A DNA stretch of 64,000 nucleotides from assembly GCA_030704615.1 (NCBI GenBank), contig CM060732.1, positions 12,338,001-12,402,000 on the forward strand, written 5' to 3'. This document shows, piece after piece, positions 1,936 to 30,207 of this stretch. A program made the translations under genes and the position numbers. Below the pieces are notes generated by a model. It was not told the origin of the DNA, did no database searches, and worked only from the letters and a program-made list of their open reading frames with translations. The DNA comes from Takakia lepidozioides (taxonomy: Eukaryota; Plantae; Bryophyta). The stretch's first letter is position 1; each line of letters opens with the position of its first letter.

Positions 1936-4900
1936 AAGTTGTAAATAACGTAGGACCCTCAACATTTCCCAAAACAGGCGTGACCTTGAGTCGTGTAACC
2001 CATTGCCATGCCCGGCTGATGAATGCCCTTGGCAGGGCCAACCTGCTACTATCAAGTGAATAGGGTCAACCCGCTCCAAACCATGCGCCCCCAGCAAAGA
2101 GATGTCTGCTGGCAATGCTTGTTGGTATCCACGAACTGCAGACACTGACAACAAATCAGGGTACTGCTGCACCAATTGAGCAACATGGCGCAGTGAGATG
2201 CGTCGTGCAGTCTCATCCCTCTCCACATACAGGTAACGTCGAACTCGTACACCTGCCTGTAGCACTGCACCCAATCCAGTGCTGATCCCGCCAAACAAGT
2301 CCAGAAGGCATATGCCTTCATCCGGGCACTGCCGCACAAGAGGTGTGGTGTCCAATGGCGACAACTGAGGTGGTCCTGGTGCAATCACCGCACTCTCCTC
2401 CTCTCTTGACGGTATGAAGGCCTCTACCCAGGCTTGTTGCACCTGTCTATCAGCAGCCTGCTGCAAATCCTTGCTCGTACCCCACAATGGAGTGTGAGCA
2501 ACCATGGCAGGCAACTCCGCCGTACCATGCATGTCATCCTGCTCTGCTAGAGGTGGCACATCCTCTGCATGGGCATTGCCCTCCAGCAACTCTCCAGGCC
2601 AACTAACTGCAGCTGTGAAGGCTGCTAGTGTTGGCATCTTGCCCCGCTGGGCAGCATCAACACCCCCAATGAATGTCACATTGAGTTGTACACGACGACC
2701 ATCCCCTGACTGCCATCCAGGCCTGTAGGATGCTGACTCCTCCCAAAAATCATATCTCCTCTTGTGTTCTTCGGACTCCAAAATGGCCCGTGGCCTTATG
2801 CACTTCAGTGATTATTGCCTCTCTGTCCATTCTTGGTGGAACTACCCTTCCCTCAAAGTCAACGACGCAATGGCGTGAGCGCCCGAGCGTACGCTCACGC
2901 AGGAGTGACGTGGCGTGAGCGTACGCTCACGCAGGAGTGACGTGGCGTGAGCGTACGCTCACGCCAGCTGACGTGGCGTGAGCCTGCACACACGCTGACG
3001 TGGCGTGAGCGTCATGTCAGCATGCTAATGTGGCGGTAAATGATGACATGGCACTGTCCGTCATCAGGGTGAAGCCCATGGAATATAACACTGCCCTACC
3101 AACGAGGACATCGTAAGAGACCGCATCTGTCATAATGGCCTTGGCTCGCATCACTGAGCCATCTATAAGATGATCCGGCTGTAGTCTAATGGCCAACTCA
3201 CACCGTGTCATGCCCCGAGCCTGCTCTGATCCTCCCAGAGATGTCTGTATCTGGAAAAGACAAGGCTCCATATCTGCCTCCATGAGGCCCAAACCTGCAA
3301 TAGCAGCTCTGCCCAACATCAGTGGCTGAGCTCCCGAGTCCAACAAGACCCGCAATGGCCGGTACTTCTTGCCTGCCAGTCCATTCAAAGAGAAAATGCC
3401 ATCCTGGTTGTCTAACAAGACAACTCCAGGTGTCACCATGGCGCGCTCAAAGGCTGGCCTAGCTGGCAGCTCTGTCAACCTGGCAGCTACAGCTTGCCAT
3501 GGCGCAGCCGTGGCAGTCTTGACCCTCAAATTCGAGAATCCTTCTGCCACTATACCTTCCACTAACTCTGCAGAAGATGAAGTGACCTCCACACTCTCGC
3601 AGAGTATTGCTGCTAGTCTGAACACTGCAGCTGGTCTTACCCCTGGCGTCGCAATCATGGTTGCCGAGAACAGTGGGGCCTGACACACAGAGGTGGCCGC
3701 CCCCAACAACACACTGGCTGCACTAGCCTTGGCAGCAGGTGTCAGTGCTGCACGTGTAGCTCTTCCCAATGGCACAATAACCTCCGCCTCAGTATCCATG
3801 GGGCGAGAATTAGGTGCCATGGATGTCGTCGACACTGTCTCCACCAAGATGAATGATTGAGGCAACCTAGCCTGATGGCTTGCCTCCCCACGTTGTGAAT
3901 CCAACTCCACCTCTGCACCTCATGGCTCAGGAATTCGTGCTGCTCCTCGAGTGACGGCTGCAGCAGACTCCACCTGCACTAGTGGTAGTGCTGCCCCACA
4001 CATAAATCTCATGCCTCCCATGTCTCCTCCGTTAGGATGACGCTGCTGAGGAGGAACAGGAGGTGGACCCTCACGTCTTGGAGCTGGTACCACCTGAGCT
4101 GTGGCCATGACAGCAAGCCTTTGTTCTAGTTGCTGAAGTTGGTTGGCCATGCCTTGGTCAACTCCCTGACCTCCACGTCCTTGGCCATACTGTGCTTGCC
4201 CTCGTCCTACACCTCGTGCCTAACCACCTTGTCCTCTCTGAGGTGCTCCAGCTCGCCCTCGGCCACCATTGTTCCCTTGGAACTGGCCTTGCCGCAACTC
4301 AGGGTGCAAGTCATAACACTGGGCATCTCCATGTCTATACTTGCCACAATGCCCACACTGCAACTGTGCAGGCTGTGCTTGTGCCGGCCTTTTGCCACTC
4401 TCTGGGAAATCTTTCTTGACATGGGGTCCTCCACATGTCCAACATATCACCCCTGGTTGCTGTTGGCTTGCAAAAGATGCTACAGGCCTCTGCACCTGAG
4501 GTCCCCTGTAAGCTCCATGGATTTGGGTTGGGAAACCTTGCCCCTCTGACCACACTGTTGGGCAGTCCCTTGTGCCTGTTGGCTGGCAGCTACGCCTCGT
4601 GCAGGCATGTCCTTGCCAAATCCAATTGTAACAACTCGCTCCTCCACCATGTTGAGCTCAATCCGCACAGCAGAAACACATCTGTTAATGTGGGTTGGGC
4701 TGCTTGTAACAGGGTTGCATCCCGCACCCTTCTCCTGAGCTCCTTGTCCAAAATTCCATACCAGAACTGGATTGCCTGAGCTTCAGTAAACCCTGGGTCA
4801 CACTTATCAAGCGCCTCATACGAGTGTAGGCCTCTCGCAAGCTCTCACTGGATTTGCGCTAGAAGTCTTGCAAACTTCGCAGCTTCTCTGTCTGTACACC

Positions 4901-5593
4901 TTGGTAGTTCCTCCGCAACTCCTGGAAGAACTCCACCATCGGGTTGAATCTAGGCACATGTGTTGTAGTCGTGGCAGGAGGAGTAGTAGCACCTTTTGAA
5001 CTGGTACCACCTGCAGAAGTACCGGCACTACTTGTTCCACTACTAGTGCTGGCAGTGGGAGATATTGGTGCTGATGCAGCTACTGGTCGCGTCGTGCCTC
5101 GAGTAATGGAGATGTAGTCAGGTGACCAATACATCCTCCACTCCTCAATCTCTGCTTCATGTCCTCACCTGAACTCGTGGTAATCATCCATATGCGGGAA
5201 TTCCAAATGCTGGAACAGTCCCTTCCATGCCATGAATGGGGTGAACAGCTGTGGATTGCGCATCTGCTGCAAATCACACCAGCTGTCAAACTCCTGGATA
5301 AAGTCATCCAACTCGATTGTGCCCACAGCTCCAGAGTACCTACGAGGCCCCTTGGTAGCTCCATACATCTCCTCCATGTCGTCCCACAACAATGGCGAAT
5401 GAAACTACACACCTGTTGATGAAGCCTCTGAGTCTGTGTCTGACTCTGCACTAGTTGAGGGTGGAGGTGAAGGTGGTCTGAAATAAACACCTCGTCTGGT
5501 GAACCCACTCTCATTGCTACTGCCTGTAATTGTACTCCCCTCAAAACCCTTGGGTAACTCCGTGATGACACTCACAACCCGCACCTCCCCCAC
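1936..5593 (-). pseudogene. disrupted gag - aspartic protease - C5 cytosine methyltransferase polyprotein (copy 1)
   Basis: Zn knuckles CWTCGGPHVKKD and CGHCGKYRHGDAQC; protease LLDSGAQ; MTase LLDLFGGISTG, YLYVERD, IVAGWPCQGHS. Several stops and frameshifts plus two insertions. Confidence 0.9.
2752..3064. repeat. about 313-bp insertion carrying a tandem array of about 32-bp CpG-rich palindromic units
   Basis: Splits MGFTL|DFWEES relative to copy 2. Units GCGTGAGCGTACGCTCACGC-AGGAGTGACGTG at about 2873-3012. Confidence 0.85.
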
Positions 5594-6114
5594 GTGACAC
5601 TATAAGGCTCTAGTACTAATTCTAATAGTGACACGGGTGAGCACCTGTTGCGGATTAAGGGTCATATCCTAGTGGCTAAGGGCACCTGCACCTGCATCCA
5701 CCGCAAGAACTCCTATGGTTGGCTGGTCATCAACCCAGCCTCACCATAGAAGAAACACTGGTGGTCTTGCTGGTCATCACTCCAGCCTCACCACCGACAG
5801 CATACTCTAGGATTGACCGGTGATCAAATCCGGCCTAATCCCTATGAAAGCAAGCGCCCACACAAAACCAACATGGCGCACAGTCAAGCATGCAGGTGTT
5901 GGAGGGGATCCAAACACAAGAAATCAAAACATCAATACCCCCACACCAAAATCCATCTGCAGTGCTGATTCTGCAGATGATCCCAGCCCAAAAACCCCGG
6001 ACTGACTGGCCTCCACCAAGAGAGGCTTTGACAACTACAAGTACAAAGTAATGAAAATAGTAAAGAGAATGAGGGGAAGAATAGAGGCCCGACCAAGCAA
6101 GATCTAATCCTGAT

Positions 6115-6950
6115 CTATGTTATCAACTGCCAGACTTCTCTCAAAGTGCCTCGCTCTGCATGATGGTAAGGTGTAGGAGGTATATCTATGTCCAGAAACC
6201 TGCCACTAACCTTATCCCAAGCTACAGTAGCTCGCTCTAACCAACCCTCCTCCTCTCTCTGCCAGGTAGAGACAAAGCAATACTCCCCTATCTCCCGCTC
6301 ACTGAATACTAAAGAAAATAAAGGTAGGGTCTGACAATCTCTCAACTCGAAAGCTTTGAGACAGTTGCGGCTGTCCTCGTTGCGAATGACTGCATCTCCT
6401 TCAAGCAGAACAAACTTTTCATTGCTAATGAACCCCCGCTCGTGGTTGCCTTGTGCAGAGCGTGTCCGGCTGCAACCATGTCTGATTGCACAAACTTGTG
6501 TAGCTCCTGCTCTTCTGCTCTAGTACACCACGGCCTTGTGGCTGAACACCTTGGTCCCCGGGGCTGTCTTTGGTTGTGTTCCAAGCCTAGCTTCCACCCA
6601 CTTTGGTATTTCACCTACAGTTGTAGAATTGCTTGCTCCAACAGAGTTCTGACTGTCCAAAGCAATATTGAGGCCCTCAACGCCAAATACTGCAGTTTGT
6701 TGTCTATTGCTAATGCCTAACTCCCAGTATGCAGTCAACTCGTCCAACTGCTCTCCATTCACATCAGTCTGAGTTCCTTGAGAAACATAAATCTTGGCCC
6801 CTTGTAGGCTAAGAGAAGATACCTTCCCTTCAATTACATCCTCATTTCCCCCAGCCATACAAGGAGGACATCCACAGATTTGTCTCTCATGTAGACCACA
6901 ACAGGTTCTAGAAACAGAATTGTGGATCTTTCATAGCACACTCACACTCA
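6115..6950 (-). pseudogene. accessory ORF upstream of gag (copy 1, frameshifted)
   Basis: ORFs 6520..6858 and 6115..6345 match the 278-aa ORF at 26371..27207, including the same stop position. Confidence 0.7.
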
Positions 6951-9309
6951 CACTCAAAAAATTCCATAGATTTTTAGCAGAGTCCAAAAAACTAAAACCG
7001 GGTCTAGATAGGTAGATTTCCCCTTTCTATAGCTATCCCCCCAAAAACTGAGTCAAACGGAGTCCATTTGACAAAGATATGACCAATTAGGCTCTAAACC
7101 ATTTAAATTAGATCAAAAGGTTTTTTTTTTTTTTTTTTTTTTTTTCAACACCAGAACAAGTCATCTACAAGTTCCCAACACGTCCATGTAGTTCTCACAG
7201 ATTCCCTGAATTTCACCTACATGTGTTTCAAACATACACCACTGAACTGCTCTGCTCCAGCCAAGATCTGTAGCTATGCCGACTCCGGGGCTTTGATCCT
7301 TCGCATCCACACCAGCTAGCACATCCTTCCATGCCACATTTGACGTGCACATGCCTCAGGGAAGCACAATGAACTCCTTTACGAGCTCTTCTTCGCTACA
7401 GAAGAAGCGTATCAGACTCGCTCCACACAAAGCCCCCCAAAAACGCAAGTCCAAGGCACGCCCAATAATGACGACATTGCACCTCCACCGGCGGCAGCTA
7501 CTCCCACAAAGCGGCGAACCCCCCTGCCCACAACGCTCACATCCCATGTGGACTTGATGACGCTCAACATAAGTTCAAAGCGCCAGTCAGATGCCTTCAA
7601 CAGTGAGACAGACAACAGCCATTCCGAAATCAAGAGGTCTCCACCAGCAAGATCAAACCCGTGAAGTAGCAACATCAAGCATACCAGGTCTCCCCCAACT
7701 CTAGCTGGAATACGAAGCGCTCGAACAACAAGCCATTGAATCACAGCTCCCTATCATTGTAGAAGAACGCTTGGGATTTGAGCTTCAAAGCCTGGGTCTC
7801 AGCACCCCTGAAATCTACGACTTGCAGAATTGTCCAAAGGCGTTCCCACATGTCCCACAGCTCTTGTTTCCTGCAACCAGACCAGACGGACGAGAGTGCC
7901 AATTCTACCCTCTCACCCAGTTACCAAAGGGCACAAAAATTGATCCCGTTTCTGGGATTTCGGCAGTCCCCCCGCACATCCTGATACGTCTTGACATCGA
8001 CTTCGTGATGCCCAAAGAACTAGCTCTACTGAGGGCTCACAAGCAATTCTATGAACATCCCACTCGGAACTAGGATGTACTCACCCATCACGGCATACTC
8101 TAAGCACGAGAGCTCAACGTGGATTGGCCTCCTTAAGGTGGAGTTACTTCACCCGGCCACAGGTGGCCTTGCCCTCTTAAAAGGCAACCGCCCATTTGTA
8201 CTAAACATGGCCTCTGGCATGCCCAAGCAAGGGAAGGTCAAAAAGACATTTGACCTCTCAGCGTCCACTGACTACCTCTCATTGTACCTGGCAAGCGAAG
8301 TCCTCCTAGGAACGATCGGCAGCAAGCTTCCCAGGCACCCTGGTGGTGAAGAATCTCAACCCACTGCATCCACAAGCAGAGGCCGAAGCAGCAATTCGCA
8401 AGCTGATGGGCACCGACAACGTTGAAAGCCTGCGTCACACTTCTCCCCTGCTACTCCTTCCTAATCGTCACCATGTCTCCCTTGAACACCACGATCTGCA
8501 CTGCACACTTGATCACCTTGCTGGCACGGAGAGGAAAATCCTGCGTTCATGCAGGAAGCAACAGCCTGCCCTCATGGCTACCGCTCTCCAGTGCATCGTC
8601 CAGCACTGCTTCCAGCCACCTCAGACTGCCATCAAATCACCAAAGTTGCGCATGAGGAAAACTGCCCATGCAAAAAGCGCCCTTGCTCGCAGCAACGTCA
8701 AGTGCGCAACCAGCTTCTCCTCATCTCCGCTGCCCACTGCTTCTTCAATTTCTGCTTTACGTGGGTGCCCTTCCCCTTCAGCTCCAATCCGGAGCTTGCT
8801 GCAGCCTGCAACTTGCTCCTTTCGTGACACCTATTTGCAATTGATGACTGCTACTGGGTCAGTTTCAACTCATCAAATACAACAGGGCTCGTACATTCCA
8901 GACGTTCGAATGAGCTGCTACGTTCCCATTAAGTGCCTGGTATAAAGGCAAGGTAGGCTGAACCAACATAGAAAGCATGTCTGCTCCGAATCCCTCTATG
9001 TCCTCAAATTTATGCTAAAACCATTCCAGCTCCAGTGTAACCTGCACAACGCCCCGACTTCGTGTTCCTATGCGTTGCTGCTGCGGCTGATGAGTTGGCA
9101 AATCACATGAACAAAAATGCCAGAGCCTGCACAATGAAGAAAGTTGAACAAAGTCTGGAACTCTACTGTTGATGATGCACTTGACATCTTTCTAACTAAA
9201 GATTACCTGAACACAGATAATCATTTCTCTCACTTTCAAAACAAAAACCACAAGTGCTAAAACTAAACTCACCTCTGGCACTCACAGATGCAAGCTCATC
9301 TCTCTCGAG

Positions 9310-9661
9310 TGATTAGAAACTAGATTCACACTGTTGATACAGAAACACTCAATACAACACAATCACTCATTAAAACTAAGAGTCGAGCCAGGGGCACCCC
9401 AAGCTATGGGGACTCCACCCCACAACATCCTATTCTCCCTTCATAAGCACACTCAGATTCTAAGCAGTGAAAGAGCTCGGTCGTGCAGGCTCAACTCGAG
9501 AGGGATGAGCCGCACGACTGACGAGCTTGTGAAGATAAGATGGTTCAGGTGTCAAGCTAAACTTGACACCTGACTTAACACTTGAACTAATTCCAAGTGT
9601 TAAATACAAATAACTAGATTTATTCTAGTTAGTTTCACACTGTGTTTAGTTTAACTTGACA
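9310..9661 (-). repeat. 5' terminal B repeat of Gypsy-DNMT copy 1
   Basis: Diverged homolog of 29855-30203 (GTCGAGCCAGGGGCACCCCAAGCTATGGGGACTCCACCCC, hairpin series, TTGACA end). No A segment adjacent. Confidence 0.88.
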
Positions 9662-11190: not shown

Positions 11191-11194
11191 CACA

Positions 11195-16097: not shown

Positions 16098-16360
16098 GGT
16101 GGCTGAACGAGATGTGGTGTTTTGGAGTGCCATGATTGCAAGGTATGTGCCGCATGGGTATGGGATTAAGGCTTTGGAAACCTAGGAGCAAATGATGTGG
16201 GAAGGGATGAAGCAAGACCAGGTCATATTCATTTGTGTTTGTAATATGTAGCAGCCCTGGGAAGGGGCGAAGAGGTTCATGGTGACATTATCAAAGCTGG
16301 AATTGTACCAGATGTCATTCTGAACATTCCCCTGGTGTACATCTACATCAAATGTGAGCG
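16098..16360 (+). pseudogene. PLS-type PPR gene fragment
   Basis: Reads AERDVVFWSAMIARYVPHG...EQMMWEGMKQDQVIF with stops and frameshifts; resembles repeats of the 36.5-43.2 kb genes. Confidence 0.75.
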
Positions 16361-17299: not shown

Positions 17300-17765
17300 C
17301 TAGCTCACCAAGTACAAACCTTGCCTGGTAATAACACAAGGAAGGCAAAAGCAATGTCTCATCCTCGACGATTTGATCTTCGCCCCCTCTCCCCCCATCC
17401 TTGTCAAGGACTCCTGGACCAGAAGCTGGCTGACTGCTAGCAATTTGAGCGCAACGAAGATTCTCTTATAGCTTTCACAGAGATGGACACAAAGAGGGGG
17501 GTTTAGCAATAGTCCAAGAGGCCATGAACCGTGATTATCCTCTTATTCCAATGGACATTCCAAGCCTTAACAAGAGGGTCTCAAGCATGGAAGAAAGCGG
17601 CATCCTAATCCACTTTCCAGGAAAGAAGGTTGACAGAGGCTACGTCCAAGACTGGGCGATTAGATACCTTGGTGGACCAGGTGAGTTGAGGCAACCTTTT
17701 TGCCATGCCAAAGGGCGAGGTTTCAACTCCATTGTCTTTGAGTCTCCAAAGGCAGCGGCCAAGGC
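17300..17765 (+). mobile_element. L1-type LINE, 5' part of ORF1 (DUF4283-like), interrupted by Gypsy-DNMT copy 2
   Basis: Removing 17766-30207 restores KGRGFNSIVFESPKAAAKA|FKFNPHLNGLNVNIFPWS. The left boundary is approximate. Confidence 0.72.
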
Positions 17766-18289
17766 TGTCGTGCGCATACATATCGCTACACAACTACATC
17801 GCTGTCCAAACCACACCACACATATATGCACAATAAAGTAGTCTACCACAATAGAAAGCTAGGAACACACTGTTCACACAAGAAACATGAAATCCATCGC
17901 TATCACTCTTTATAATAGTAGTCGAGCCAGGGGCACCCCAAGCTATGGGGACTCCACCCCACAACAACCTACACTCCCATCATGAGTACACTCAGATCTA
18001 AACGCATGCAGGAGCTCGGTCGCGCAGGCTCAACTCGAGAGAGATGAGCTGCGCGACTGCCGCTCTCGTGAAGATAAGACGGACCAGGTGTCAAACTAAA
18101 CTTGACACCTGATTTAACACTTGACCTAAATCCCAAGTGTTAAATACAAATAACTAGTTTTATGCTAGCTGTTTTCACACTGTGCTTATTTAACTTGACA
18201 GCTGTCGTGCGCATACATATCGCTACACAACTACATCGCTGTCCAAACCACACCACACATATATGCACAATAAAGTAGTCTACCACAAT
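17766..18289 (-). repeat. 3' composite terminus: A (17766-17850), B (17851-18200), GC, A (18203-18287)
   Basis: The two 85-bp A copies are identical. B equals 29855-30203 except TAAATCCCAAG versus TAAATCCAAG. Confidence 0.95.
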
Positions 18290-18299
18290 CGCCCCCCTA
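18288..18299 (-). promoter_or_regulatory. putative polypurine tract
   Basis: Minus strand reads TAGGGGGGCGAT immediately before TGTGGTAG (start of inner A), about 250 bp after the pol stop. Confidence 0.6.
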
Positions 18300-18546
18300 G
18301 CTGGTGGATAGGTCCCTCTACCTCCAGATAGCTACAAGACGTAATAGCCATAGCCGTACTAAGTCCTGTATCACTGTCCCTATCGTACTCAAACTCTATA
18401 GACCAAGAGGCCGGGTGCAAGAGTAGCCCCATCGTTAGTTGCCGTCTTGCAATATGTGAACTTGAGCCAGGACTTCGTGTATTCAAGGTCTCCTGTAGCT
18501 GGGCCTTGCGTTGCTTGTTAGCCTCCCATGGTTGTATCCACTCCCA

Positions 18547-21522
18547 CTATCTAATGCATTGTGGACATAACCAATCCCCATTTGGAACCATCTCAAGAGG
18601 TGGAGTCAAGCACCCCATATGCCAACCTCTAGAGCATCGATCACACACCACCATGGTGGCTGCCCCTTTAGCAGACCCACACAACATGCACCTCAAACCT
18701 GCAGATACCACTGCCAGGTTTGGGTCAATCCTGCCATCGACATTCGGAAGGTGACATGGCGCACAATTACGCACATGGTCCTTCCAAGTTATGCCATCCC
18801 GACCCTCCAAGACCAAGACGCCTGAGGGCAAGACCTCTCGAACCCTCAAAATAACACGTCCTGCAGTCACATCCAGGGTCGTAGGAGCAGTCTGCTGCAG
18901 ATAGACATAGTCACCAGGGTTGAATCTCCGAACCCCAGGACGATAGCCCCCACCACGTATGGTAGCATACCTCAACGTATCACGGTGTTGTGCAATGGCA
19001 AGGTTCTCGAAAGCCATGGGCATGACTCTCTTGAACAACTCTGCACGCTGCTCACATGCACGTGCCCACACGTCCGGATCATCAAGGTTAAGAACTGTAG
19101 CAGCTTCTCTGCGAATGGATGTAGGCAAATCCGGCTCTCGGCCAAAGAGAAGAAAGTATGGTGAGAAGGAGGCAAGTGATGCTTGCTTGCTGAACCTGTA
19201 GCCCATGGCTAACCAGGGTAACTGAAGGTCCCAATCTCCTAGGTGTCCCTTCTGCAAGCCATACTTGCGCAAACCCCTCTTTACTGTCTGAACAACTCTC
19301 TCTGCCAAGCCATCGGCTTCAGGATAATCCCGAGAAGTGGTGCGGTGGTCTATCAAGGCCTTGTCACACAAAGCCTGAAACTCCCCCAAGAACTCTCTCC
19401 CTTGGTCCGTGAGTACCTCAGCTGGAGCACCGAATCGGCTAAGCACACAATCCAGGAATGCATACGCAGCTCCCTCACTAGCCTTATCAGGCAATGGAAC
19501 CAATTCAATCCACTTGGAGAAGTGCTCCACCATCACCAACATGTACTTGTTGTGGCGCATGGTCAGTGGCAACGGCCCTGCGAAGTCAAGACTCCACCTG
19601 TAGCCCAATCCCATGATCGGAAGAGGGTGCAATTGTGGAGTAGGGGCGTTGAATGAAGCACGCACCCTGTCACACACCATGCACCTAGCCACAAATTGTT
19701 GCACCTCTGTGTGCATACCACGCCACCAATACTGCCCCTGCAGTAGACTATGAGTGCGTCGCACCCCAAAATGCCCCAACTCCTCATGGGCATGCCGCAC
19801 TAACCGTGCCCGCTGTGTTGGGTGAGGCACAATCCTCACTCGACCATCCTCCCACACTCGGAGCAGGTGTGTCCCCTCCCACCTGAACCTCTTGGCTCGT
19901 TGTAGGATCCGATCCCTCTCCTTGGCAGTCATAGTGGCTGCCGTGTCTCCACTGCGGAGGTAGTCCAACACAACTGAATCCTCATGTATATCTTTGGCGC
20001 CACCCTGCTCATTGCTGGCCTCAGGGTCCTCAGACACTTGATCTACAGTCATCCCTGTTGTAGGTCCAACCTGGCCTTCCGCTGCCAAGATACACAGAAA
20101 TGCAGATGCATGCCATCCGGGCACCATCTCCTCGTCCGTCTCACCATGCCACCGAGCTCCAGTGTCATCCTGCTGGCTCGTGCATGGATTGCGACTCAAC
20201 CCATCTGCATTTCGATTGACCAAACCCGGTCGATGCACCACCTGAAAGTCATACTCTTGAAGGATGAGTGCCCACCGTGCAAGCTTCCCCGTAAGCTTGT
20301 CTGACTCCATCAACCACTTGAGTGGTTGGTGATCCGTGACAAGGGTGAAGAGATTGCCGTATAAATAGCACCTGAAGTATGCCACGGCCCACACTGCAGC
20401 TAAGCATTCTCCCTCATATGAGCTATACTTAGACTCTGCAGCATTGTTCGAGCGGCTAGCATAAGCCACTACGAACTCTCTTCCCTCATCATCCACCTGT
20501 GTGAGCACCGCTCCAAGCCCCAGCATGCTCCAATCTGTATGCAGCTGAAAAGGACGCCCCCTGATAGGTCGTCTCAAGATGGGCGCCGAGGTCAACCTCG
20601 CCTTGAGCTCTTGAAAAGCTTGTTCTTGCTCATCTTCCCACTGCCACTCCTGGTCCACCTTGGTCAGCTTGGTTAGAGCATTTGCAATGGCACTAAATCC
20701 CTTAACAAACCGTCTGTAATAGTTTGCTAACCCCATGAAAGCTCGAACTCGGCTCACATCCGTGGGGCGTGGAACCTGTGCAATGGACTCTACCTTAGTC
20801 TGCTGTACCCCCAATCCTCCAGGATATATCATGTGACCCAGATACTCAATCTGGTTGTGGAAAAACTTGCACTTCCCCGGATGTAACTTCAATCCGTGCG
20901 TCCTCAAGCGCTCAAATACCCCCTGAAGGTGTCTCTCATGCTCCTCCACCGTAGCACTAAAGATGATGATGTCATCTATGTAGCACCGAGCAAACTCCAC
21001 CCCTGCTAGAATCCTGTCCATGACTCTTTGAAACTCAGCGGGAGCGTTTTTAAGCCCAAATGGTAAGAACCGCCACTGGTATAGGCAATCCTTCCCGTGC
21101 TCATTGATCCCCCAGAATGCCGTCTTTTGCTTATCCGCCTCCTTGATCGGCAACTGGTGATATCCGGATCGTAAATCCAACGTGCTAAAGACCTTGGAAT
21201 GCCCAATGGCATCAAAGATCTCCTCTGGTGTTGGCATGGCATACCTATCGGACTTGGTCTGACGATTTACAGGCCGGTAATTACCGCACATACGTCTCTC
21301 CGTCCAATTGCCATAGACATCCTTCTTAGCTGGCATCACTGTGGCTGAAGCATACTCTCCACCAGAGAGCTCCACCAAACCTGCCTCCCAGAGATCTTGA
21401 GTCCTCATCTGAATCAAAGACCTCTCCATGTCACTGTATCTATAGGGTCTCCGAAAGATTGGCGTGTTAGTGGCCAACTCAATACGGATCTCTTGACCCT
21501 TCAGTGCTCCCAAGTCCTTCAA
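18547..21522 (-). CDS. gypsy pol: RT - RNase H - DDE integrase - C-terminal PHD finger (frame is open up to the TAG at 21682)
   Basis: LDLRSGYHQ, LPFGLKNAP, YIDDII; TDWS, SSYEGECLA, TDHQPL, NADGLSR; HHCC (HEELGH..CMVC), LDFAGP, TDQGREF, GLAER; CMLC..CDRC..WHMGC..WLCPQC. Confidence 0.96.
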   Translation of the reverse strand: MKDLGALKGQEIRIELATNTPIFRRPYRYSDMERSLIQMRTQDLWEAGLVELSGGEYASATVMPAKKDVYGNWTERRMCGNYRPVNRQTKSDRYAMPTPEEIFDAIGHSKVFSTLDLRSGYHQLPIKEADKQKTAFWGINEHGKDCLYQWRFLPFGLKNAPAEFQRVMDRILAGVEFARCYIDDIIIFSATVEEHERHLQGVFERLRTHGLKLHPGKCKFFHNQIEYLGHMIYPGGLGVQQTKVESIAQVPRPTDVSRVRAFMGLANYYRRFVKGFSAIANALTKLTKVDQEWQWEDEQEQAFQELKARLTSAPILRRPIRGRPFQLHTDWSMLGLGAVLTQVDDEGREFVVAYASRSNNAAESKYSSYEGECLAAVWAVAYFRCYLYGNLFTLVTDHQPLKWLMESDKLTGKLARWALILQEYDFQVVHRPGLVNRNADGLSRNPCTSQQDDTGARWHGETDEEMVPGWHASAFLCILAAEGQVGPTTGMTVDQVSEDPEASNEQGGAKDIHEDSVVLDYLRSGDTAATMTAKERDRILQRAKRFRWEGTHLLRVWEDGRVRIVPHPTQRARLVRHAHEELGHFGVRRTHSLLQGQYWWRGMHTEVQQFVARCMVCDRVRASFNAPTPQLHPLPIMGLGYRWSLDFAGPLPLTMRHNKYMLVMVEHFSKWIELVPLPDKASEGAAYAFLDCVLSRFGAPAEVLTDQGREFLGEFQALCDKALIDHRTTSRDYPEADGLAERVVQTVKRGLRKYGLQKGHLGDWDLQLPWLAMGYRFSKQASLASFSPYFLLFGREPDLPTSIRREAATVLNLDDPDVWARACEQRAELFKRVMPMAFENLAIAQHRDTLRYATIRGGGYRPGVRRFNPGDYVYLQQTAPTTLDVTAGRVILRVREVLPSGVLVLEGRDGITWKDHVRNCAPCHLPNVDGRIDPNLAVVSAGLRCMLCGSAKGAATMVVCDRCSRGWHMGCLTPPLEMVPNGDWLCPQCIR

Positions 21523-21681
21523 ATTGAAGGCAAAGCAATTCCTGTAAGCCCTCAGGAACCGCCGTATACGTCGTCTCTCTCCTCCGGTGACAATGGGTCC
21601 AATGTCAGGCTCCCAATTGTCCTCCGTAACTGCAACCTTAAGTCCAGTGGGCTTAGAGGTAGAGGACGCATCCTGTGGTTG

Positions 21682-24410
21682 CTATGCTGCAACCTCTTGA
21701 GCAGTACCCCCTTCCTGCTCAGTCAATGACAAGGCCTCATCCTGCCCCATCATCTCATCATTGAGAACCTCCTCATCCCGAGAAGAATCCCCAACCTCAT
21801 CCATCACAGCTGCCTTCGCTGCCAACTCCCTCTGAACCTCGAGCACCTCCCACATGTGCCATGGATGTCTACACCTCGTGGTCCTCACCGGCTCGCCCCC
21901 ACTCGCTGCCTGTACCGTCTCGGTAGGCAGAGAGACCGTCAAGGGAAGTGCACTCCGCACTCTACGTTGCTCAGCCATAGCCATGCTGACAATCCAGGTC
22001 AAGCAATTGAGATCCATTGCTTGCCCCAACACCTGACGACGTGATGCCTCAGAAAGAGAAGGCACCGCCGTGGTCCCAGTGGAAAACCCCATAGCCCGCT
22101 CTTGCTCGTCGGCATTAGGCTCCACTAACTGCTGCAAATGAGCATCCCACAGGAGGCCAGGTCCACCATCCCGAAAAGCATGGGATCCTGGGAAGCTGAG
22201 CAGTGTAGGTAATGCTGCTCGTGGTTGACCCACCCTGTTGACCACTGCCAAAGGCGAACGGTCATCGTGTCTCACACGTTGAGACTGCCTTCCTGTGTCC
22301 AAAATGCCATCCCCCCATCAAATGCACGCTTGAGCAGTGCGGGTGGCATCAAGTTAGTCCACCATAGTCGTGGACGATGAGCCTGTGACCCCACTGCAGC
22401 TGCATCCAGCAACACTGCTGACCCAAGCCACGACCGGACTTGATGCACACTGGCCATCACCCTGGCCCGAGAATCACCCATCAGTGGTACATTCTCCAAG
22501 ATGTATGCTGGAGATACAGCTTGATGAAGCTGCAAGCAGCGCAAAATCCACACCATCTCCCAAAACAGACCCGTCCTCGAGTCTCGCAATCCATTGCCAT
22601 GCCCGGCTGATGAATGCCCTTGGCAGGGCCAACCTGCCACTATCAGATCAATGGAGCCAACCTGCTCCAAATCTTGCGCCCCCAACAAGGAAATGTCTGC
22701 TGGCAAGGCTTGTTGGTATCCACGAACTGCAGACACAAGCAACAAGTCAGGGTACTGCTGTACCAACTGAGCCACATGGCGCAGTGAGACGCGTCGTGCA
22801 GTCTCATCCCTCTCCACATACAGGTAACGCCTTACCCGCACACCTGCCTGTAGCACAACAGCCAATCCGGTGCTGATCCCGCCAAACAAGTCCAGAAGGC
22901 AAATGCCTTCATCCGGCCGCTGCCACACAAGAGGTGTGGTGTCCAATGGCGACAACTGAGGTGGCCCTGGTGCAATCACCGCACTCTCCTCCTCTCCTGA
23001 CGGTACAAAAGCTTCTTCCCAAGCTTGTTGCACCCGTCCATCAGCAGCTTGCTGCAAATCCTTGCTCGTACCCCACAACGGAGTGTGAGCAACCATGGCA
23101 GGCAACTCCGCCGTACCATGCATGTCATCCTGCTCTGCTGGAGGTGGCACATCCTCTGCATGGGCATTGCCTTCCAGCAACTCTCCAGGCCAACTAACGG
23201 CAGCTGTGAAGGCGGCTAGTGTTGGCATCTTGCCCCGCTGGGCAGCTGCAATACCCCCAATGAATGTCACAGGGAGCTGTGCACGGCGACCATCCCCTGA
23301 CTGCCATCCAGGCCTGTAGGATGCTGACTCCTCCCAGAAATCCAGGGTGAAGCCCATGGGGTATAACACTGCCCCACCAACGAGGGCATCGTAAGAGACC
23401 GCGTCTGTCACAATGGCCTTGGCTCGCATCACTGAGCCATCTACAGGATGATCCGGCTGCAGTCTAATAGCCAACTGATGCCGTGTCATGCCGCGAGCCT
23501 GCTCTGATCCTCCCAGAGATGTCTGTATCTGGAAAGGACAAGGCTCCATATCCGCCTCCATGAGGCCCAAACCTGCAATAGCAGCTCTGCCCAACATCAG
23601 TGGCTGAGCTCCTGAGTCCAACAAGACCCGCAGTGGCCGGTACTTCTTGCCTGCCGGTCCACTCAAAGTGAAAATGCCTCCCTGGTTGTCTAACAAGACA
23701 ACTCCAGGTGTCACCATGGCGCGCTCAATGGCTGGCCTAGCTGGCAGCTCCGTCAACCTGGCAGCTGCAACTTGCCATGGCGCAGCCGTGGCAGTCTTGA
23801 CCCTCAAATCCGAGGATCCCTCTGCCACTACACCTTCCACTAACTCCGCAGAAGATGAAGTGACCTCCCCACTCTCACAGAGTGTTGCTGCTAGTCTGAA
23901 CACTGCAGCTGGTCTCACCCCCGGCGTCGCAATCATTGTTGCCGAGAACAGTGGGGCCTGACACACAGAGGTGGCTGCCCCCAATAACACACCGGCCGCA
24001 CTAGCCTTGGCAACAGGAGTCAATGCTGCACGTGTAGCTCTCCCCAATGGCATAGTAACCTTCGCCTCGGTAACAGTCGGGCGAGAACTAGGTGACATGG
24101 ATGGCGTCGACACAGTCTCCGCCAATGTGAATGACTGAGGAAGCCTTGCCTGACGGCTTGCCTCCCCACGCTGTGGATCCAATTCCACCTCTGCACCTCG
24201 TGGCTCAGGAACTCGTGCTGCTCCTCGAGTCACGGCTGCAGCAGACTCCACCTGCTCTAGTGGTAGTGCTGCTCCGCACATAAATCCCATGCCTCCCATA
24301 TCTCCTCCCTCAGGAGCAGGAGGTGGACCATCCCGCCTGGGAGCCGGTACCGCCTGAGCTATAGCCATGGCAGCGAGCCTCTGCTCTAGCTGCTGAAGCC
24401 GATTGGCCAT
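21682..24410 (-). pseudogene. aspartic protease plus DNMT3-like C5 cytosine methyltransferase (frameshift near 22300)
   Basis: LLDSGAQ; motif I LDLFGGIS, II YVERD, IV AGWPCQ, VI ILENVP, VIII AHRPRLWWTN, IX EQERAMGF, X RRQVLGQAM. Confidence 0.92.
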
Positions 24411-24557
24411 GCCTTGGTCAACACCCTGACCTCCGCGTCCTTGGCCATGTGGAGCTTACCCTTGGCCTGCACCTCGTGCCCGACCACCTCGTCCTCTTTG
24501 GGCTGGTCCACCTCGCCCCCGGCCACCATTGTCCCTTGGAACTGGCCTGGGCGCAAC

Positions 24558-25850
24558 TCAGTCATAACACTGGGCATCTACATGCCCATACTTGCCACAA
24601 TGCCCACACTGCAACTGTGCAGGCTGTGCTTGTGCCGGCCTTCTGCCATTCTCTGGGCAATCTCTTTTGACATGGGGTCCTCCACATGTCCAACATATCA
24701 CCCCTGGTTGCTGTTGGCCTGCAAAAGATGCCACGGGCCTCTGCACCTGAGGTCCCCTGTGAGCTCCATGGAACTTGGGCTGGGCAACCTTGCCCCCCTG
24801 ACCACGCTGTTGGGCAGTCCCTTGTGCCTGTGGGCTGACAGCTGTGCCCCGTACAGGCATGTCCTTGCCAAATCCAATTGTAACAACTCGCTCCTCCACC
24901 ATGTTGAGCTCAATCCGCTCAGCCAGCAGAAACACATCTGCTAATGTGGGTTGGGCTGCTTGTAACAGGGTTGCATCTCGCACCCTTCTCTTGAGCTCCT
25001 TGTCCAGAATTCCATACCAAAACTGGATTGCCTGAGCTTCAGTAACCCCTTGGGTCACACTTATCAAGCACCTCATACGAGTGTACGCCTCTCGCAGGCT
25101 CTCACTGGGTTTGCGCTGGAAGTCTTGCAAACTTCGCAGCTTCTCTGTCCGTACACTTTGGTAGTTCCTCCGCAACTCCTGGAAGAACTCCACCACCGGG
25201 TTGAATCTAGGCACATGTGTTGTAGTCGTGGCATGAGGAGTAGTAGCACCTTTTGAACTGGTACCACCTACAGAAGTACCAGCACTACTTGCTCCACTAC
25301 TAGTGCTGGCAGTGGGAGCTATTGGTACTGATGCAGCTACTGGTCGCGTCGTGCCTCGAGTAATGGAGACGTAGTCAGGTGACCAATACATCCTCCACTC
25401 CTCAATCTCTGCTTCATGTCCTTGCCTGAACTCGTGGTAATCGTCCATAGGCGGGCCTTCCAAATGCTGGAACAGTCCCTTCCACGCCATGAATGGGGTG
25501 AATAGCTGTGGATTGCGCATCTGCTGCAAATCACACCAGCTGTCGAACTCCTGGATAAAGTCATCCAACTCGATTGTGCCCACAGCTCCAGAGTACCTAC
25601 GAGGCCCCTTGGTAGCTCCATACATCTCCTCCATGTCGTCCCACAACAATGGCGAATGAAAGTGCACACCTGTTGATGAAGCCTCCGAGTCTGTGTCTGA
25701 CTCTATAGTAGTTGAGGGTGGCGGTGAAGGTGGTCTGAACCGAATACCTTGTCTTGTGAACCCACTCTCACTGTTACTGCTTGTAGCCGTACTCCCCTCA
25801 ACACCCTTGGATAACTCCGTAATGACACTCACAATGTGCACCTCCTCCAA
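24558..25850 (-). CDS. gag with two Zn knuckles (premature stop caused by an 8-bp deletion)
   Basis: Retrotrans-gag-like QRKPSESLREAYTRM; CWTCGGPHVKRDC and CGHCGKYGHVDAQC; same frame as 22272..24410. Confidence 0.88.
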   Translation of the reverse strand: MEEVHIVSVITELSKGVEGSTATSSNSESGFTRQGIRFRPPSPPPSTTIESDTDSEASSTGVHFHSPLLWDDMEEMYGATKGPRRYSGAVGTIELDDFIQEFDSWCDLQQMRNPQLFTPFMAWKGLFQHLEGPPMDDYHEFRQGHEAEIEEWRMYWSPDYVSITRGTTRPVAASVPIAPTASTSSGASSAGTSVGGTSSKGATTPHATTTTHVPRFNPVVEFFQELRRNYQSVRTEKLRSLQDFQRKPSESLREAYTRMRCLISVTQGVTEAQAIQFWYGILDKELKRRVRDATLLQAAQPTLADVFLLAERIELNMVEERVVTIGFGKDMPVRGTAVSPQAQGTAQQRGQGGKVAQPKFHGAHRGPQVQRPVASFAGQQQPGVICWTCGGPHVKRDCPENGRRPAQAQPAQLQCGHCGKYGHVDAQCYD

Positions 25851-26370
25851 GTGACACTATAAGGCTCTAGTACTAATCTAATAGTGACACGGGTGGGCAC
25901 CTGTTGCAGTCTAAGGGTCATATCCCAATGGCTCAGGGCACCTGCACCTGCATCCACCGCAAGAACTCCTATGGTTGGCTGGTCATCAACCCAGCCTCAC
26001 CATAGAAGAAACACTGGTGGTCTTGCTGGTCATCACTCCAGCCTCACCACCGACAGCATACTCTAGGATTGACCGGTGATCAAATCCGGCCTAATCCCTA
26101 TGAAAGCAAGCGCCCACACAAAACCAACATGGCGCACAGTCAAGCATGCAGGTGTTGGGGGGGGATCCAAACACAAGAAATCAAAGCATCAACACCCCCA
26201 CACCAAAATCCAGCTGCAATGCGGATCCTGCAGAATAGCCCAGCCCAAAACCCCGGACTGACTGGCCTCCACCAAGAGAGGCTTTGGCAACTACAAGTAC
26301 AAGGTAATGAAAATAGTACAGAGATGGAGGGGAAGAATAGAAGCCCGACCCAGCAAGATCTAATCCTGAT

Positions 26371-27207
26371 CTATGCTATCAACTGCCAGACTTCTCTCAA
26401 AGTGCCTCGCTTTGCATGATGGTAAGGTGTAGGAGGTATATCTATGTCCAGAAACCTGCCACTAACCTTGTCCCAAGCTACAGTAGCTCGCTCTAACCAA
26501 CCCTCCTCCTCTTTTTGCCAAGTAGAGACAAAGCAACACTCTGCTATCCCCCGCTCACTGAACACTAAAGAAAACAAAGGTAGGGTCTGATAGTCTCTCA
26601 ACTCGAAAGCTTTGAGACGGTTGCGGGTGTCCTCATTGCGAATGACTGCATCTCCTTCACGCACAACAAACATGTCATTGCTGATGAACCCCGGCTCGTG
26701 GTTGCCCTGTGCAGAGCGTATCCGGCTGCAACCATGTCTGATTGCACAAACTTGTGTAGCTCCTGCTCCTCTGCTCCAGTACACCACGGCCTTGTGGCTG
26801 AACACCTTGGTCCCCGGGGCTGTCTTTGGCTGTGTTCCAAGCCTAGCTTTCACCCACCTTGGTATTTCACCTACAGCTGCAGAACTGCTGGCTCCAACAG
26901 AGTTCTGACTGTCCAAGGCGATATTGAGGCCCTCAATGCCAACTACAACAGTCTGTTGTCTACTGCTAATGCCTGACTCCCAGTATGCAATCAACTCGTC
27001 CAACTGTTCTCCACTCAAATCAGTCTGAGTTCCTTGGGAAACATAGATCCTGTCCCCTTGTGTGCACAAGCTAAGAGAAGAGACCTGCCCTTCAATTACG
27101 TCCTCATTTCCCCCAGCCATACAGGGAGTACATCCACAGGTTTGTCTCTCATATAGGCCAGCACAGGTTCTAGAAACAGGATTGTGGATATTTCGTGGCA
27201 CACTCAC
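26371..27207 (-). CDS. accessory ORF of unknown function upstream of gag
   Basis: 278-aa open frame, conserved in copy 1; no motif recognised; start codon uncertain. Confidence 0.55.
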   Translation of the reverse strand: MSVPRNIHNPVSRTCAGLYERQTCGCTPCMAGGNEDVIEGQVSSLSLCTQGDRIYVSQGTQTDLSGEQLDELIAYWESGISSRQQTVVVGIEGLNIALDSQNSVGASSSAAVGEIPRWVKARLGTQPKTAPGTKVFSHKAVVYWSRGAGATQVCAIRHGCSRIRSAQGNHEPGFISNDMFVVREGDAVIRNEDTRNRLKAFELRDYQTLPLFSLVFSERGIAECCFVSTWQKEEEGWLERATVAWDKVSGRFLDIDIPPTPYHHAKRGTLREVWQLIA

Positions 27208-29854
27208 ACTCTAAAAATTCCATAGATTTTTAGCAGAGTCCCCAAAACAGAAACCAGGTTTAGATAGGTAGATTTCCCCTTTCTGCAGCTATCCCCCCAA
27301 AAACTGGGTCAACCAGAGTCCATTTGACAAAGATATGATGAATTTGGCTCCAATCATTTAAATTAGATCAAAAGGGCCCCCTTTTTTTTTTAAAGGTTTT
27401 CAAATTAAAAAAAATTTAAAGTTACACCCAAAATATCTAGTAATTGGTTCCCGGTTCCCTAAGTTCTATATGGTTTCCTAGGTTCCCTGGCCACGTGCCC
27501 TATAAGGATTTCAGTTGTGTTTACAAATGCACCCCCCACAGCTCTTGGTTACCAGTGACCTGCTCTCCTCCAGTCGAGATCCGTAGCTATGCCGAGCCTT
27601 AATCCTTTGCACCAATATTCCCAACAAAAGCAGGAGCACTTACAATGCAACCCCGGAAAGCACCAGAGCTAACTAGCTTGATCAAGAACGCTTACAGCCC
27701 TTCAAGCGTGCTGATTTTTCAAGGTGGCAACAACAGATATGCTATCACTGATTGTGTAAGCCTTTACATGGAGTTGGCACAGGCTGCCCTCAAGTTTTGG
27801 ATTGTAAACATAGACCGAGCAGGTCGTGTAGTGAGCTGGGCCCCTTCAGCTCATATCCCGCTCATACACCAAGTGTCACCTGGTGAGTCCACAGTCTCCC
27901 ACTCTCATGCTCTCCAGCCGCTGGCTCTACTTGAACTCCCATTCACTGCTGCCCCATTCGCTGCTCCCATTCAGGTCATGAATTTGTGGAAGGACTCACC
28001 TCAGATTGGAGGTGAATACCAAACATCTTTCATCCATAGCCATTTTCTAGTGTCATGCTCTTACAAACACAATGGCTGCTTACTGTGTAGGACAGACAGT
28101 AGCAATCCCCTCGTCCTCCAGTAAACCGGATCTCATTGCATAAGGCACTGGTATCGTGAACAGAAAACGTAGTCAAGTAGCGGTGAATTCTTAGTTCATG
28201 CAGCTGATTTCCGAGCCCTTTTGTCGATCCACGATTTGGTCATGCCAGTAAGCCCCTACAACATTGGCTTCATATCTCGCAGGGGAAACAATTATGGATG
28301 CCAAACAGGCCATCCAGGGTGGGCACTCAGTCCATCGCAAGTTTTGGTCCAATACCTGATCAAAGGGTTGCACATGAGCAGCTTGCATGCTCGTCAATCT
28401 CCAAAACCATGCAGCAGAGATGCCCGTCAGCTCCTACCAGCTCCTGGTTCTGCTCAGCCCTTCCCAGCCGCTGCCTCTATTTCGCTAGCCCTTGGTTCGG
28501 TGTGGGAGATTGGAACCACCGAATGGAGCTGCAGAGAACCAGGAAGCAAGTGGAAGGAGCAGGGCTGCCCACAGCCTCTTCTTCATCAGTCGACTCAGCA
28601 TCAGGAGGAGCTGGAATGGCTTCATCACCAGCCCTCTTACATCTGGGGATCCAGTCCAAAGGTAAGGGAAACCAGCCGCACTTGCGCATGAAAAGCCTGG
28701 TAATCAGGCCTAAATTTCAGATGCCAGGCTGCATAGCCCTCAATGTGCAGGTCCAGAAGCATCAAAACACCCTGGATTCATTCAATTCCAGCCACATTTC
28801 CAGTGTGAAGACATAGCCGCCAATGCACATGGCAATTAGGCCTGGAATCAGGCTGCAAAATCTTCGTAAGGCCTCACCATAGGCATGAAATGCTTCAGAT
28901 TCCTGCAGTAAAAGCACTTAGCAGCCCCCATTCACACCAGCACTGCTTCCACAAGCAGAGGCCGAAGCAGCAATTCGCAAGCTGATGGGCACCGACAGCG
29001 TTGAAAGCCTGCGTCACACTTCTCCCCTGCTACTCCTCTGCTCTATTCTCCTCTAGATCTAAGTCTGCTTCAACGTCGTCTTCAGCAATACAATGATCTT
29101 GAGACCGCCGCTGCTCCGAGGAGTGAGATTTGGACGAAACCTGCTTGGCCCTCCCTAAGTCCCTCTGCTTTGGTGCAGGGGCTGCCCTGGGTTGAGCAAC
29201 AGCCTTTGTATTCCGAGTCTGCTTTGCGGCACGCCCACTCCCAGTACCCTTACCTCAACTCCCAACCCTAGTCACAACAACCACTGCCTCTTCGCAGCGC
29301 GCGTTCTGACATGATCTCGCATTGGAGCAACCTCCTCTGTTGCACCAACTGTGCGCCACCGGGAAGTGGCTCATCTGGTGGGAGCGGCCTCAGGGTATGC
29401 AGCAGCTACTGCTGGCACCTGTGGTGGAGAGCGGGGTTGGCGCACTCCACTACGCAGCTCTGGCATCCTTCACCCATGCACTCCACCAGCCTGCGTACTG
29501 CCTCACGATGTGCGCTCATATCTTTGCTATCAAATCCTTCACCTTTTTCTCCCCTTCTGAATGTAACCTAATATCACTTCTCCATTTGTGACCTACCCCG
29601 TCGCAATCAAATATCTTAACATATCTCTGATTGAGTTCAGTAAGTTTGCATCTCTGCCGTTTGTGACAGAGAGTCGTCAGACCATAATGACCTCACTTCA
29701 GATCCGCTGTCTCTGAGCCATGCCATGGGTTCTCAAATGTATGGAAGGCGAATTGAGAGATTGGTCTCTCTCTCATTTTCAAAACAAAAACCACAAGTGC
29801 TAACCCTCAACTCCTACCTTGCACTCACAGGTAAGAGGTCATCTCTCTCGAGTG

Positions 29855-30203
29855 ATAGAAAGCTAGGAACACACTGTTCACACAAGAAACATGAAATCCA
29901 TCGCTATCACTCTTTATAATAGTAGTCGAGCCAGGGGCACCCCAAGCTATGGGGACTCCACCCCACAACAACCTACACTCCCATCATGAGTACACTCAGA
30001 TCTAAACGCATGCAGGAGCTCGGTCGCGCAGGCTCAACTCGAGAGAGATGAGCTGCGCGACTGCCGCTCTCGTGAAGATAAGACGGACCAGGTGTCAAAC
30101 TAAACTTGACACCTGATTTAACACTTGACCTAAATCCAAGTGTTAAATACAAATAACTAGTTTTATGCTAGCTGTTTTCACACTGTGCTTATTTAACTTG
30201 ACA
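29855..30203 (-). repeat. 5' terminal B repeat (349 bp) of copy 2
   Basis: Direct repeat of 17851-18200; begins TGTCAAG on the minus strand. Confidence 0.95.
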
Positions 30204-30207
30204 AGGC

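Follow-up and report, generated by a model that had tools for sequence, protein, structure and literature searches.

The window analysed here is a stretch of 64,000 nt from the genome of Takakia lepidozioides (CM060732.1), and all coordinates given below are positions within it. On the minus strand it carries a retrotransposon of the Ty3/Gypsy kind (copy 2) that encodes, in addition to a PHD finger, a cytosine-5 DNA methyltransferase (DNMT) domain assigned to the DNMT3 type, as well as a truncated second copy (copy 1). The ends of copy 2 are built from two repeated segments, A and B, NN denoting a 2-nt spacer. Its features include reverse transcriptase (RT), a polypurine tract (PPT) and a target site duplication (TSD):

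17766..30203, minus strand: whole element, copy 2, with TG...CA termini and the layout A1-coding-PPT-B1-NN-A2-B2
17762..17765: left copy of the 4-bp TSD, AGGC on the plus strand
30204..30207: right copy of the 4-bp TSD
29855..30203, minus strand: repeat A1 at the 5' end, beginning with TGTCA and differing from A2 by one indel in 350 bp
30037..30051, minus strand: predicted self-primer within A1, forming 15 consecutive pairs with 29839-29853 and paired in the minimum free energy and centroid structures
29839..29853, minus strand: predicted primer-binding site directly behind A1, without the TGG start of tRNA-type sites
27421..29555: segment rare in the family, with a summed depth 100-1000x below that of the coding part and no Pfam match
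24558..25634, minus strand: gag with two zinc knuckles (24657-24695 and 24567-24608), its frame broken at ~24558 in copy 2
23376..23624, minus strand: aspartic protease, LLDSG (23610-23624) ... DALVG, conserved in relatives
22317..22910, minus strand: DNMT3-type domain, motifs I-VIII
22312..22316, minus strand: site of a frameshifting deletion in copy 2, net 25 nt shorter than relatives
21979..22311, minus strand: DNMT3-type domain, target-recognition part and motifs IX-X
21676..21684, minus strand: in-frame stop TAG CAA CCA in CAR-YYA context, conserved, closing the Gag-protease-DNMT frame
18547..21681, minus strand: RT, RNase H, integrase (HHCC, D-D35E) and PHD finger (18550-18690) in an uninterrupted frame of 1044 codons, with YIDD at 20971-20982
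18290..18302, minus strand: PPT adjoining B1, the same tract being present in related loci
18203..18289, minus strand: repeat B1, ending with CGACA and identical to B2
18197..18206: palindrome GACA-GC-TGTC at the internal junction, where a 2-nt spacer separates the end of B from the start of A; predicted to be the site used by the integrase
17851..18200, minus strand: repeat A2
17766..17852, minus strand: repeat B2, the 3' terminus, joined to the A2 end via a 2-nt overlap
1936..9661, minus strand: copy 1, with A1, gag, protease and DNMT motifs I-IV, 91% identical to copy 2

The order protease-RT-RNase H-integrase, the DDE integrase and the Ty3-like RT (Ty3 Gag-Pol, E 2e-92), together with TG...CA ends, a short TSD and the PPT, place copy 2 in Ty3/Gypsy. 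It deviates from this class in having no two co-linear terminal long terminal repeats (LTRs) with the tract abutting the 3' LTR, the arrangement instead being A-coding-tract-B-A-B. Repeats of the A-B-A-B kind also occur in SymbioDIRS-Dnmt3 and in PAT/Ngaro elements, the dinoflagellate case including a DNMT3, but there integration is by a tyrosine recombinase (YR), whereas the Takakia element has a DDE integrase, TG...CA ends and a 4-bp TSD. No match to a tyrosine recombinase was obtained in the 20 + 12 frames scanned, which together with the DDE integrase and the TSD ruled out a DIRS/YR identity. The PHD finger is nearest to those of CHD4, PHF12 and KDM5A/B, which are readers of unmethylated H3K4, and may steer insertion.

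As A1/A2 and B1/B2 of copy 2 differ by one indel and no substitution over ~436 bp of paired repeats, its insertion is recent, in line with the initial annotation, which had described the element as recently mobile. Copy 2, with its broken gag and DNMT, likely depended for its movement on proteins supplied in trans by an intact relative. Copy 1 was cut at 1935/1936 by the end of a copia LTR, between DNMT motifs IV and VI, so that, as had been proposed, it keeps motifs I-IV. The 5' regions of the two copies (7130-9226 in copy 1 and 27421-29555 in copy 2) diverge over ~2 kb apart from a shared 97-bp piece (28941-29037 / 8362-8458), and several contigs of run X5 match parts of the rare segment with loose ends, which may reflect captured or variable cargo.

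The methyltransferase domain and its relatives

The C5-methyltransferase motifs I-X of copy 2 lie in unrearranged order on the minus strand between 22012 and 22898:

22878-22898, minus strand: motif I, LLDLFGG
22806-22820, minus strand: motif II, YVERD
22611-22634, minus strand: motif IV, GWPCQGHS, with PCQ at 22620-22628
22488-22505, minus strand: motif VI, YILENV, with ENV at 22488-22496
22359-22385, minus strand: motif VIII, QAHRPRLWW
22084-22122, minus strand: motif IX
22012-22041, minus strand: motif X

Motifs I, II, IV, VI, VIII, IX and X with PCQ and ENV were thus found in the order and on the strand described in the initial annotation, and the profile comparison that it had suggested gave a PF00145 match above the Pfam cut-off (E=1.2e-11). 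The domain had also been presented as intact, which holds for PCQ and ENV but not for the reading frame, as the frameshift at ~22312-22316 leaves motifs I-VIII and motifs IX-X in different frames and copy 2 cannot make the enzyme. Contigs of other family copies carry extra letters at this break, and the domain is unbroken in the relatives L001, L004 and L008.

We used the L008 domain for comparison with solved sequences, among which DNMT3A was the best match (E 1e-11), ahead of a DRM-type enzyme (4e-5) and HaeIII (1e-4). Its structure model, built with 64 sequences, had a pLDDT of 96.7, and all 31 of the 31 fold matches listed were DNMT3A, DNMT3B or DNMT3C, with DNMT3A as best match (TM 0.74/0.84, E 1.4e-19). 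By sequence, motifs and modelled fold the domain is therefore of the DNMT3 type, as had been supposed, and its activity is a prediction. A search of the ESM Atlas with the domain returned generic PF00145 clusters only. In the metagenome loci the catalytic PC is kept in 45 of 50 motif-IV matches and ENV in 38 of 46 motif-VI matches. This dominance of catalytic residues, and a fold that is that of DNMT3 and not of DNMT2, make it improbable that the domain has been retained as a binding module or to act on a substrate other than DNA, i.e. that its function is to coat or protect cDNA ends or to methylate RNA or an RNA-DNA hybrid instead of duplex DNA, even though the negative yeast test of a related algal enzyme, described below, would agree with such a function.

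Comparison of copy 1 with copy 2, a check also proposed at the outset, gave a dN/dS of 0.16 for the DNMT (bootstrap 0.075-0.28; 120 codons), and the window domain shares 65-72% amino-acid identity with those of L001, L004 and L008, with synonymous sites at or near saturation; the DNMT is under purifying selection. Near-identical dead copies from the metagenomes have dN/dS values of 0.34-1.3, as expected after insertion, and we draw no support from them. That the domain was captured recently from a host DNMT gene and evolves neutrally, for which we found no supporting evidence, is hardly credible in view of the dN/dS of 0.16, of scores of 150-300 bits for element-borne relatives versus 48 bits for DNMT3A, and of the occurrence of the same domain in the same kind of element across liverworts, mosses and algae, in a tree that was built without host bryophyte DNMT3.

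Summed contig depth, which gives no copy number, was 0.65-1.1 million for the DNMT part and 1.0-1.15 million for the RT part in run X2, with ~700-1200 in two bins of the rare segment 27421-29555; in run X1 the values were 13-22 thousand and 34-36 thousand for the DNMT and RT parts, respectively. With the DNMT part within a factor of ~1-3 of the RT part, the domain is not absent from most family members, a point raised in the initial annotation as worth examining. The family is highly abundant, and more than a minority of its members carry the DNMT.

Of 27 matches to the DNMT, 16 belong to Marchantia polymorpha, 2 to Calypogeia fissa and 2 to Sphagnum, and no vascular plant is present among the 20 that carry a species name. 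The relatives from these three genera are 50-77% identical to the window domain, and further relatives are encoded at 71 metagenome loci. DNA from RT to PHD finds a match in 20/20 aligned plant genomes (13 family codes) at 71-78% identity, the DNMT lying beside the RT in both of the two that were checked for it. A deeper search yielded 228 representatives at E<=1e-30. The 281 DNMT-bearing proteins comprise 135 with the order RT-RNase H (RH)-DNMT-integrase (INT), 16 with the DNMT before the RT and 79 with the DNMT alone, the rest being partial. The DNMT is located on the gag side in Klebsormidium nitens and Closterium and after RNase H in Scenedesmus.

Our DNMT tree contained 61 rows, 23 of them of the RH-DNMT-INT type (22 drawn at random), and was confined to element-borne domains and one phage outgroup, host DNMT3, DRM and DNMT1 being left out. 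In it the window falls into a nine-row group with Marchantia and Calypogeia (SH-aLRT 99), and the split between the DNMT-before-RT and RH-DNMT-INT architectures divides this tree and the RT tree alike. The DNMT3-Gypsy clade seems to be widespread in green algae, and the domain has changed its position. Viral contigs contributed one phage Dcm-like gene only (30% identity). The RT, RNase H and integrase of two plant-assembly loci, L073 and L074, are 80-94% identical to those of the window at the amino-acid level across plant family codes, with synonymous sites near saturation, reflecting either strong constraint or an old horizontal transfer.

The initial annotation had pointed to the Gypsy-Dnmt3 elements of Klebsormidium, a kinship supported by a K. 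nitens relative among the DNMT-bearing proteins, by the DNMT tree and by the DIRS-like repeats. KnitGypsy-Dnmt3 of K. nitens is described as having DIRS-like repeats and being under purifying selection (de Mendoza et al. 2018, PMC5890265), and it shares with the Takakia element the Gypsy domains, an unrearranged DNMT3-type domain under such selection and, according to the legend of Fig. 4c of that paper, A-coding-B-A-B repeats. A protein of the same host, KFL_013780020, consists of a zinc knuckle followed by a DNMT at its end. The Takakia family differs in residing in a land plant and in its very high copy number, and is a land-plant variant of the KnitGypsy-Dnmt3 kind. The pol of Scenedesmus sp. 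PABB004 (P0271; RT-RH-DNMT-INT-PHD) belongs to the same DNMT clade (35-44% identity) and also combines integrase with a PHD finger, but has its DNMT between RNase H and integrase and lies on the other side of the DNMT and RT trees. It is part of a large set of Gypsy-PHD polyproteins with this arrangement, including P0204, P0225 and other proteins, for which we found no description in the searchable literature; the passages available from the Chlamydomonas v6 paper (10.1101/2022.06.16.496473), a chromatin survey and PMC6453930 contain no such element. In the available parts of PMC12344493 and bioRxiv 10.64898/2026.05.21.726589 Gypsy-DNMT3 is cited as 'streptophyte'. Neither land-plant members nor a leaky stop or integration route were found in published reports, most subscription papers lying outside the search and the supplements of the 'streptophyte' papers being places where sequences might be listed.

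The stop codon between methyltransferase and RT

Between DNMT and RT copy 2 has an in-frame TAG at 21682-21684, followed by CAA CCA. The position originally assigned to the DNMT, between protease and RT of the polyprotein, is correct in that the protease lies upstream and the RT downstream, but the domain ends the Gag-protease frame at this conserved stop. The stop region of the window (21675-21686) shows no variant >=2% in four runs while neighbouring sites vary, a stop is present at the DNMT/RT junction in 42/42 metagenome loci spanning it (37 distinct contexts, mostly of one family), and L073 and L074 both have TAG CAA CCA with unrelated linkers, ruling out a private mutation of the window copy. 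The codons after the stop read CAA-C[C/T]N in 39 of the 42 loci, and TAG or TAA is the next codon in 3. Intact Gag-protease-DNMT proteins of 1280-1331 amino acids end at this stop.

CAR YYA is the readthrough signal of tobacco mosaic virus (TMV), which functions in plants with both UAG and UAA; in a plant reporter readthrough reached 32% and was lower with UAA (PMC2754532, in the part available). In-frame stops are also reported for SIRE1, Tca2 and MuLV in the accessible part of PMC2194720, and as far as these two sources go the Takakia element resembles TMV and those retroelements in having a stop with CAA CCA/CTA between two frames, and differs from them in having both protease and DNMT before it. 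The text of PMC5890265 as available places the Klebsormidium DNMT in the Pol open reading frame, whereas the Takakia DNMT ends the Gag-protease frame before a leaky-type stop and would be continuous with the RT only on readthrough.

Readthrough is likely because the stop is invariant in the host family and found at the same place in relatives. The DNMT would then likely be made with every Gag, at capsid level, and the Pol enzymes only on readthrough; with considerable confidence we expect TAG CAA CCA to set a high ratio of Gag-protease-DNMT to Pol, with many DNMT molecules per particle. That the stop is instead a true end, Pol being translated from a spliced or otherwise separate RNA or after reinitiation, seems to us a poor prospect: an ATG does follow CAA CCC in the commonest metagenome family, but none is found there in the window, L008, L061, L073 or L074, and in contrast to the surrounding linker the six bases behind the stop are conserved.

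Terminal repeats, priming and integration

The layout A-coding-B-A-B with a 4-bp TSD recurs in L031, L052, L066 and the rearranged L038, whereas L058 and L028 have A-coding-B with a TSD, and four further 3' ends terminate with B. The spacer of the B1|A2 palindrome (GACA-GC-TGTC) is GC in the window, AT elsewhere and AC once. Six of eight A2|B2 junctions are precise, one has a 19-nt insert and one a 15-nt insert beginning with primer-binding sequence. Such inserts are seen at the joins of end-joined LTR circles, and by analogy those at A2|B2 look like end-joining scars, which suggests integration via the internal site. The A2|B2 join corresponds to the right end of an ordinary B-NN-A product fused exactly to its left end.

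No tRNA-type TGG site is present directly behind A1. The pairing predicted for self-priming comprises 15 pairs in the window, compared with a control maximum of 10, and up to 24 in L052, and the stem has fold z values of -4.0 in the window and -2.9 in a second family, the sequences of the two families being unrelated. According to the accessible part of PMC6317226, Tf1/Sushi elements prime themselves and moss Tcn1 is predicted to do so; these elements share with the Takakia element the lack of a tRNA site, predicted self-priming and occurrence in mosses, the Takakia element having a PHD finger instead of a chromodomain plus split repeats. We consider it very probable that the RNA primes itself by pairing of the A segment directly behind A1 and that plus-strand synthesis begins from the PPT preceding B1, which would make B-NN-A the working LTR. 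With the minus strand starting from the A end and the plus strand from the B start, ordinary reverse transcription would yield B-NN-A at both ends. Joining of the two ends of the cDNA, A end to B start, would follow, and cleavage by the integrase at the CA-NN-TG palindrome within the left repeat would produce A-coding-B-A-B flanked by a 4-bp TSD; this step appears reasonably probable, and single-repeat circles would give A-coding-B inserts.

Symmetric cutting of a two-repeat circle was rejected. It predicts permuted inserts (A-B-A-coding-B), which occur at 0/18 5' ends (16 distinct metagenome ends, L051/L052 being merged and the truncated L034/L035 dropped, plus two in the window), so that a bias towards the left site, itself without explanation, is required. 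A linear route, in which an end-to-end jump of the RT adds a copy of B to the right end, the integrase trims both ends and A-coding-B arises by later B1 x B2 recombination, would account for the missing permuted form and for the 1-2-nt overlaps at A|B with no closed circle, and retroviral integration is accepted to proceed from a linear precursor (PMC11054761, in the part available). As the inserts at two of the eight A|B junctions, one with primer-site sequence, resemble end-joining scars, and as cutting at the internal palindrome is still required, we regard this route as possible but rather unlikely. Whether B2 results from a linear template jump or the integrase prefers the left site, the cDNA would in either case mature in a DNMT-rich particle. 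Integration of a retrovirus via the circle junction was claimed in 1984 and later displaced by linear precursors (PMC11054761, same part); we found no report of circle integration in retrotransposons in the literature searched, and the text of PMC5890265, as far as available, gives no priming, TSD or integration mechanism for KnitGypsy-Dnmt3.

Three further observations concern element ends. In L038 positions 13619-14515 contain a deleted element with an inverted A piece beside an A|B join and retained primer-site sequence, which may be an autointegration product. A lone B-like end (87% identical) at 53853-53937 of the window, followed by short tandem units, is the end of another, perhaps non-autonomous, relative. 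The legend of Fig. 8 in 10.1101/2022.06.16.496473 describes a left LTR without the last 8 bp of the right LTR for the PHD-bearing Gypsy-7a of Chlamydomonas, which possibly has its ends split in the same manner, B being very short.

The role of the enzyme and further features of the window

Combining these results, we favour, at about even chances, a reading in which copy 2 is a defective recent copy of a high-copy bryophyte Ty3/Gypsy-PHD family whose leaky stop leads to DNMT-rich particles that methylate the cDNA before it inserts via an internal site. An active DNMT with the element's own cDNA as main substrate, so that new copies arrive methylated, most likely limiting expression and harm, appears to us just as evenly balanced. 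The initial annotation had likewise suggested that the element may methylate its own cDNA or circle, either as camouflage or to regulate itself. Methylation of cDNA by an element-borne DNMT3 was proposed by de Mendoza et al. 2018, and the finding in the same paper that SymbioDIRS-Dnmt3 domains methylate CG in yeast supports it (PMC5890265, passages available).

Several results weigh against this reading. KnitGypsy-Dnmt3 gave no methylation in yeast, a test that its authors call inconclusive (PMC5890265, same passages). The observed/expected CG ratio of the coding part, 0.50, is within the 0.35-0.54 range of neighbouring host genes and thus leaves no footprint of self-methylation, the CG/CHG depletion of the element being uninformative on methylation. 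A primer stem of at least 10 pairs in register is present in only 8 of 15 metagenome copies, permuted inserts are missing as described above, and among five old elements only two have a B1 whose closest match is their own B2 (the partial L068 being dropped), a comparison of little weight either way. The commonest metagenome family has CAA CCC, which is not CAR YYA, and then ATG, so that reinitiation is possible there, and seven deeper relatives carry DNMT-RT-RH-INT in one frame without a stop. From these seven, and from the 135 of 281 proteins with the DNMT between RNase H and integrase, it follows that capsid-level dosage is not needed clade-wide.

Instead of acting on particle cDNA, the DNMT might be active in trans on nuclear chromatin, silencing resident copies or rival elements or reshaping the insertion site together with the PHD finger. 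Expression at Gag level would supply free enzyme, copy 2 moved despite its broken DNMT gene, and the PHD finger is of the kind found in CHD4, PHF12 and KDM5A/B; the ADD domain of animal DNMT3 reads unmethylated H3K4, as PHD fingers of this type do. The domain has, however, long been kept within a particle-forming polyprotein, in two positions, which fits a role in cis better, and the hosts own DNMT3 and CMT for the job according to the available part of PMC6453930; we therefore consider nuclear action unlikely.

Extending the cDNA-methylation reading, the elements may form a green-lineage Gypsy class whose integrase uses a palindrome inside the LTR of an end-joined, circle-like cDNA and not the cDNA ends, and whose land-plant branch loads DNMT3 at capsid level via the leaky stop so that new copies enter methylated; this generalization is tentative and somewhat doubtful. 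EpiLTRs of Cymbomonas and Euglena are likewise LTR elements that pair a cytosine methyltransferase with a chromatin reader, but their DNMT is sister to DNMT4, they combine DAM with a chromodomain, and the authors state that they are distinct from Gypsy-DNMT3 (bioRxiv 10.64898/2026.05.21.726589, available passages).

The purpose of a cytosine methyltransferase on a retrotransposon has been a question since 2018, in part because the hosts were algae that are hard to handle. Close relatives in Marchantia polymorpha bring it into a model plant, and intact liverwort frames make the dosage and integration steps testable: from the conserved, likely leaky stop a capsid-level dosage of the enzyme is expected, and from the structure of the ends an internal-site integration not thought to be used by LTR elements. 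Standard LTR finders would tend to miss such elements because their repeats are split or absent. Counts of bryophyte DNMT genes may include element domains, as the 16 Marchantia sequences among the 27 matches are annotated genes.

In the remainder of the window the PPR and CDC50 genes indicate a land plant, likely a bryophyte, in agreement with the land-plant origin assumed in the initial annotation. Two divergently placed intronless PLS-E-DYW PPR genes are located at 36521-38482 (minus strand) and 40611-43163 (plus strand), with tandem duplications of the DYW end at 42987-43709 and a PPR fragment at 16100-16356. An intronless CDC50/ALIS gene is at most 60% identical to any match listed and groups weakly among mosses, as sister to a Sphagnum-cluster row (90/43). 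This gene, an F-box/kelch gene, the copia element and further fragments of long interspersed nuclear elements (LINEs) account for 9692-11194, 62315-63511 and 50186-51325 (minus strand) and 77-1935 and 34047-35387 (plus strand). An element of ~3 kb with long terminal inverted repeats (91% over 449 bp) lies at 30862-33924. Finally, in a LINE-like fragment at 44979-47272 (minus strand) RNase H and an endonuclease-like C-terminal tail are preceded by a frame resembling PCIF1/CAPAM-type adenine methyltransferases (PF12237, E 6e-5, below the cut-off; Atlas 0.93, recognition low). The fragment may represent a second kind of methyltransferase-bearing retroelement in Takakia.

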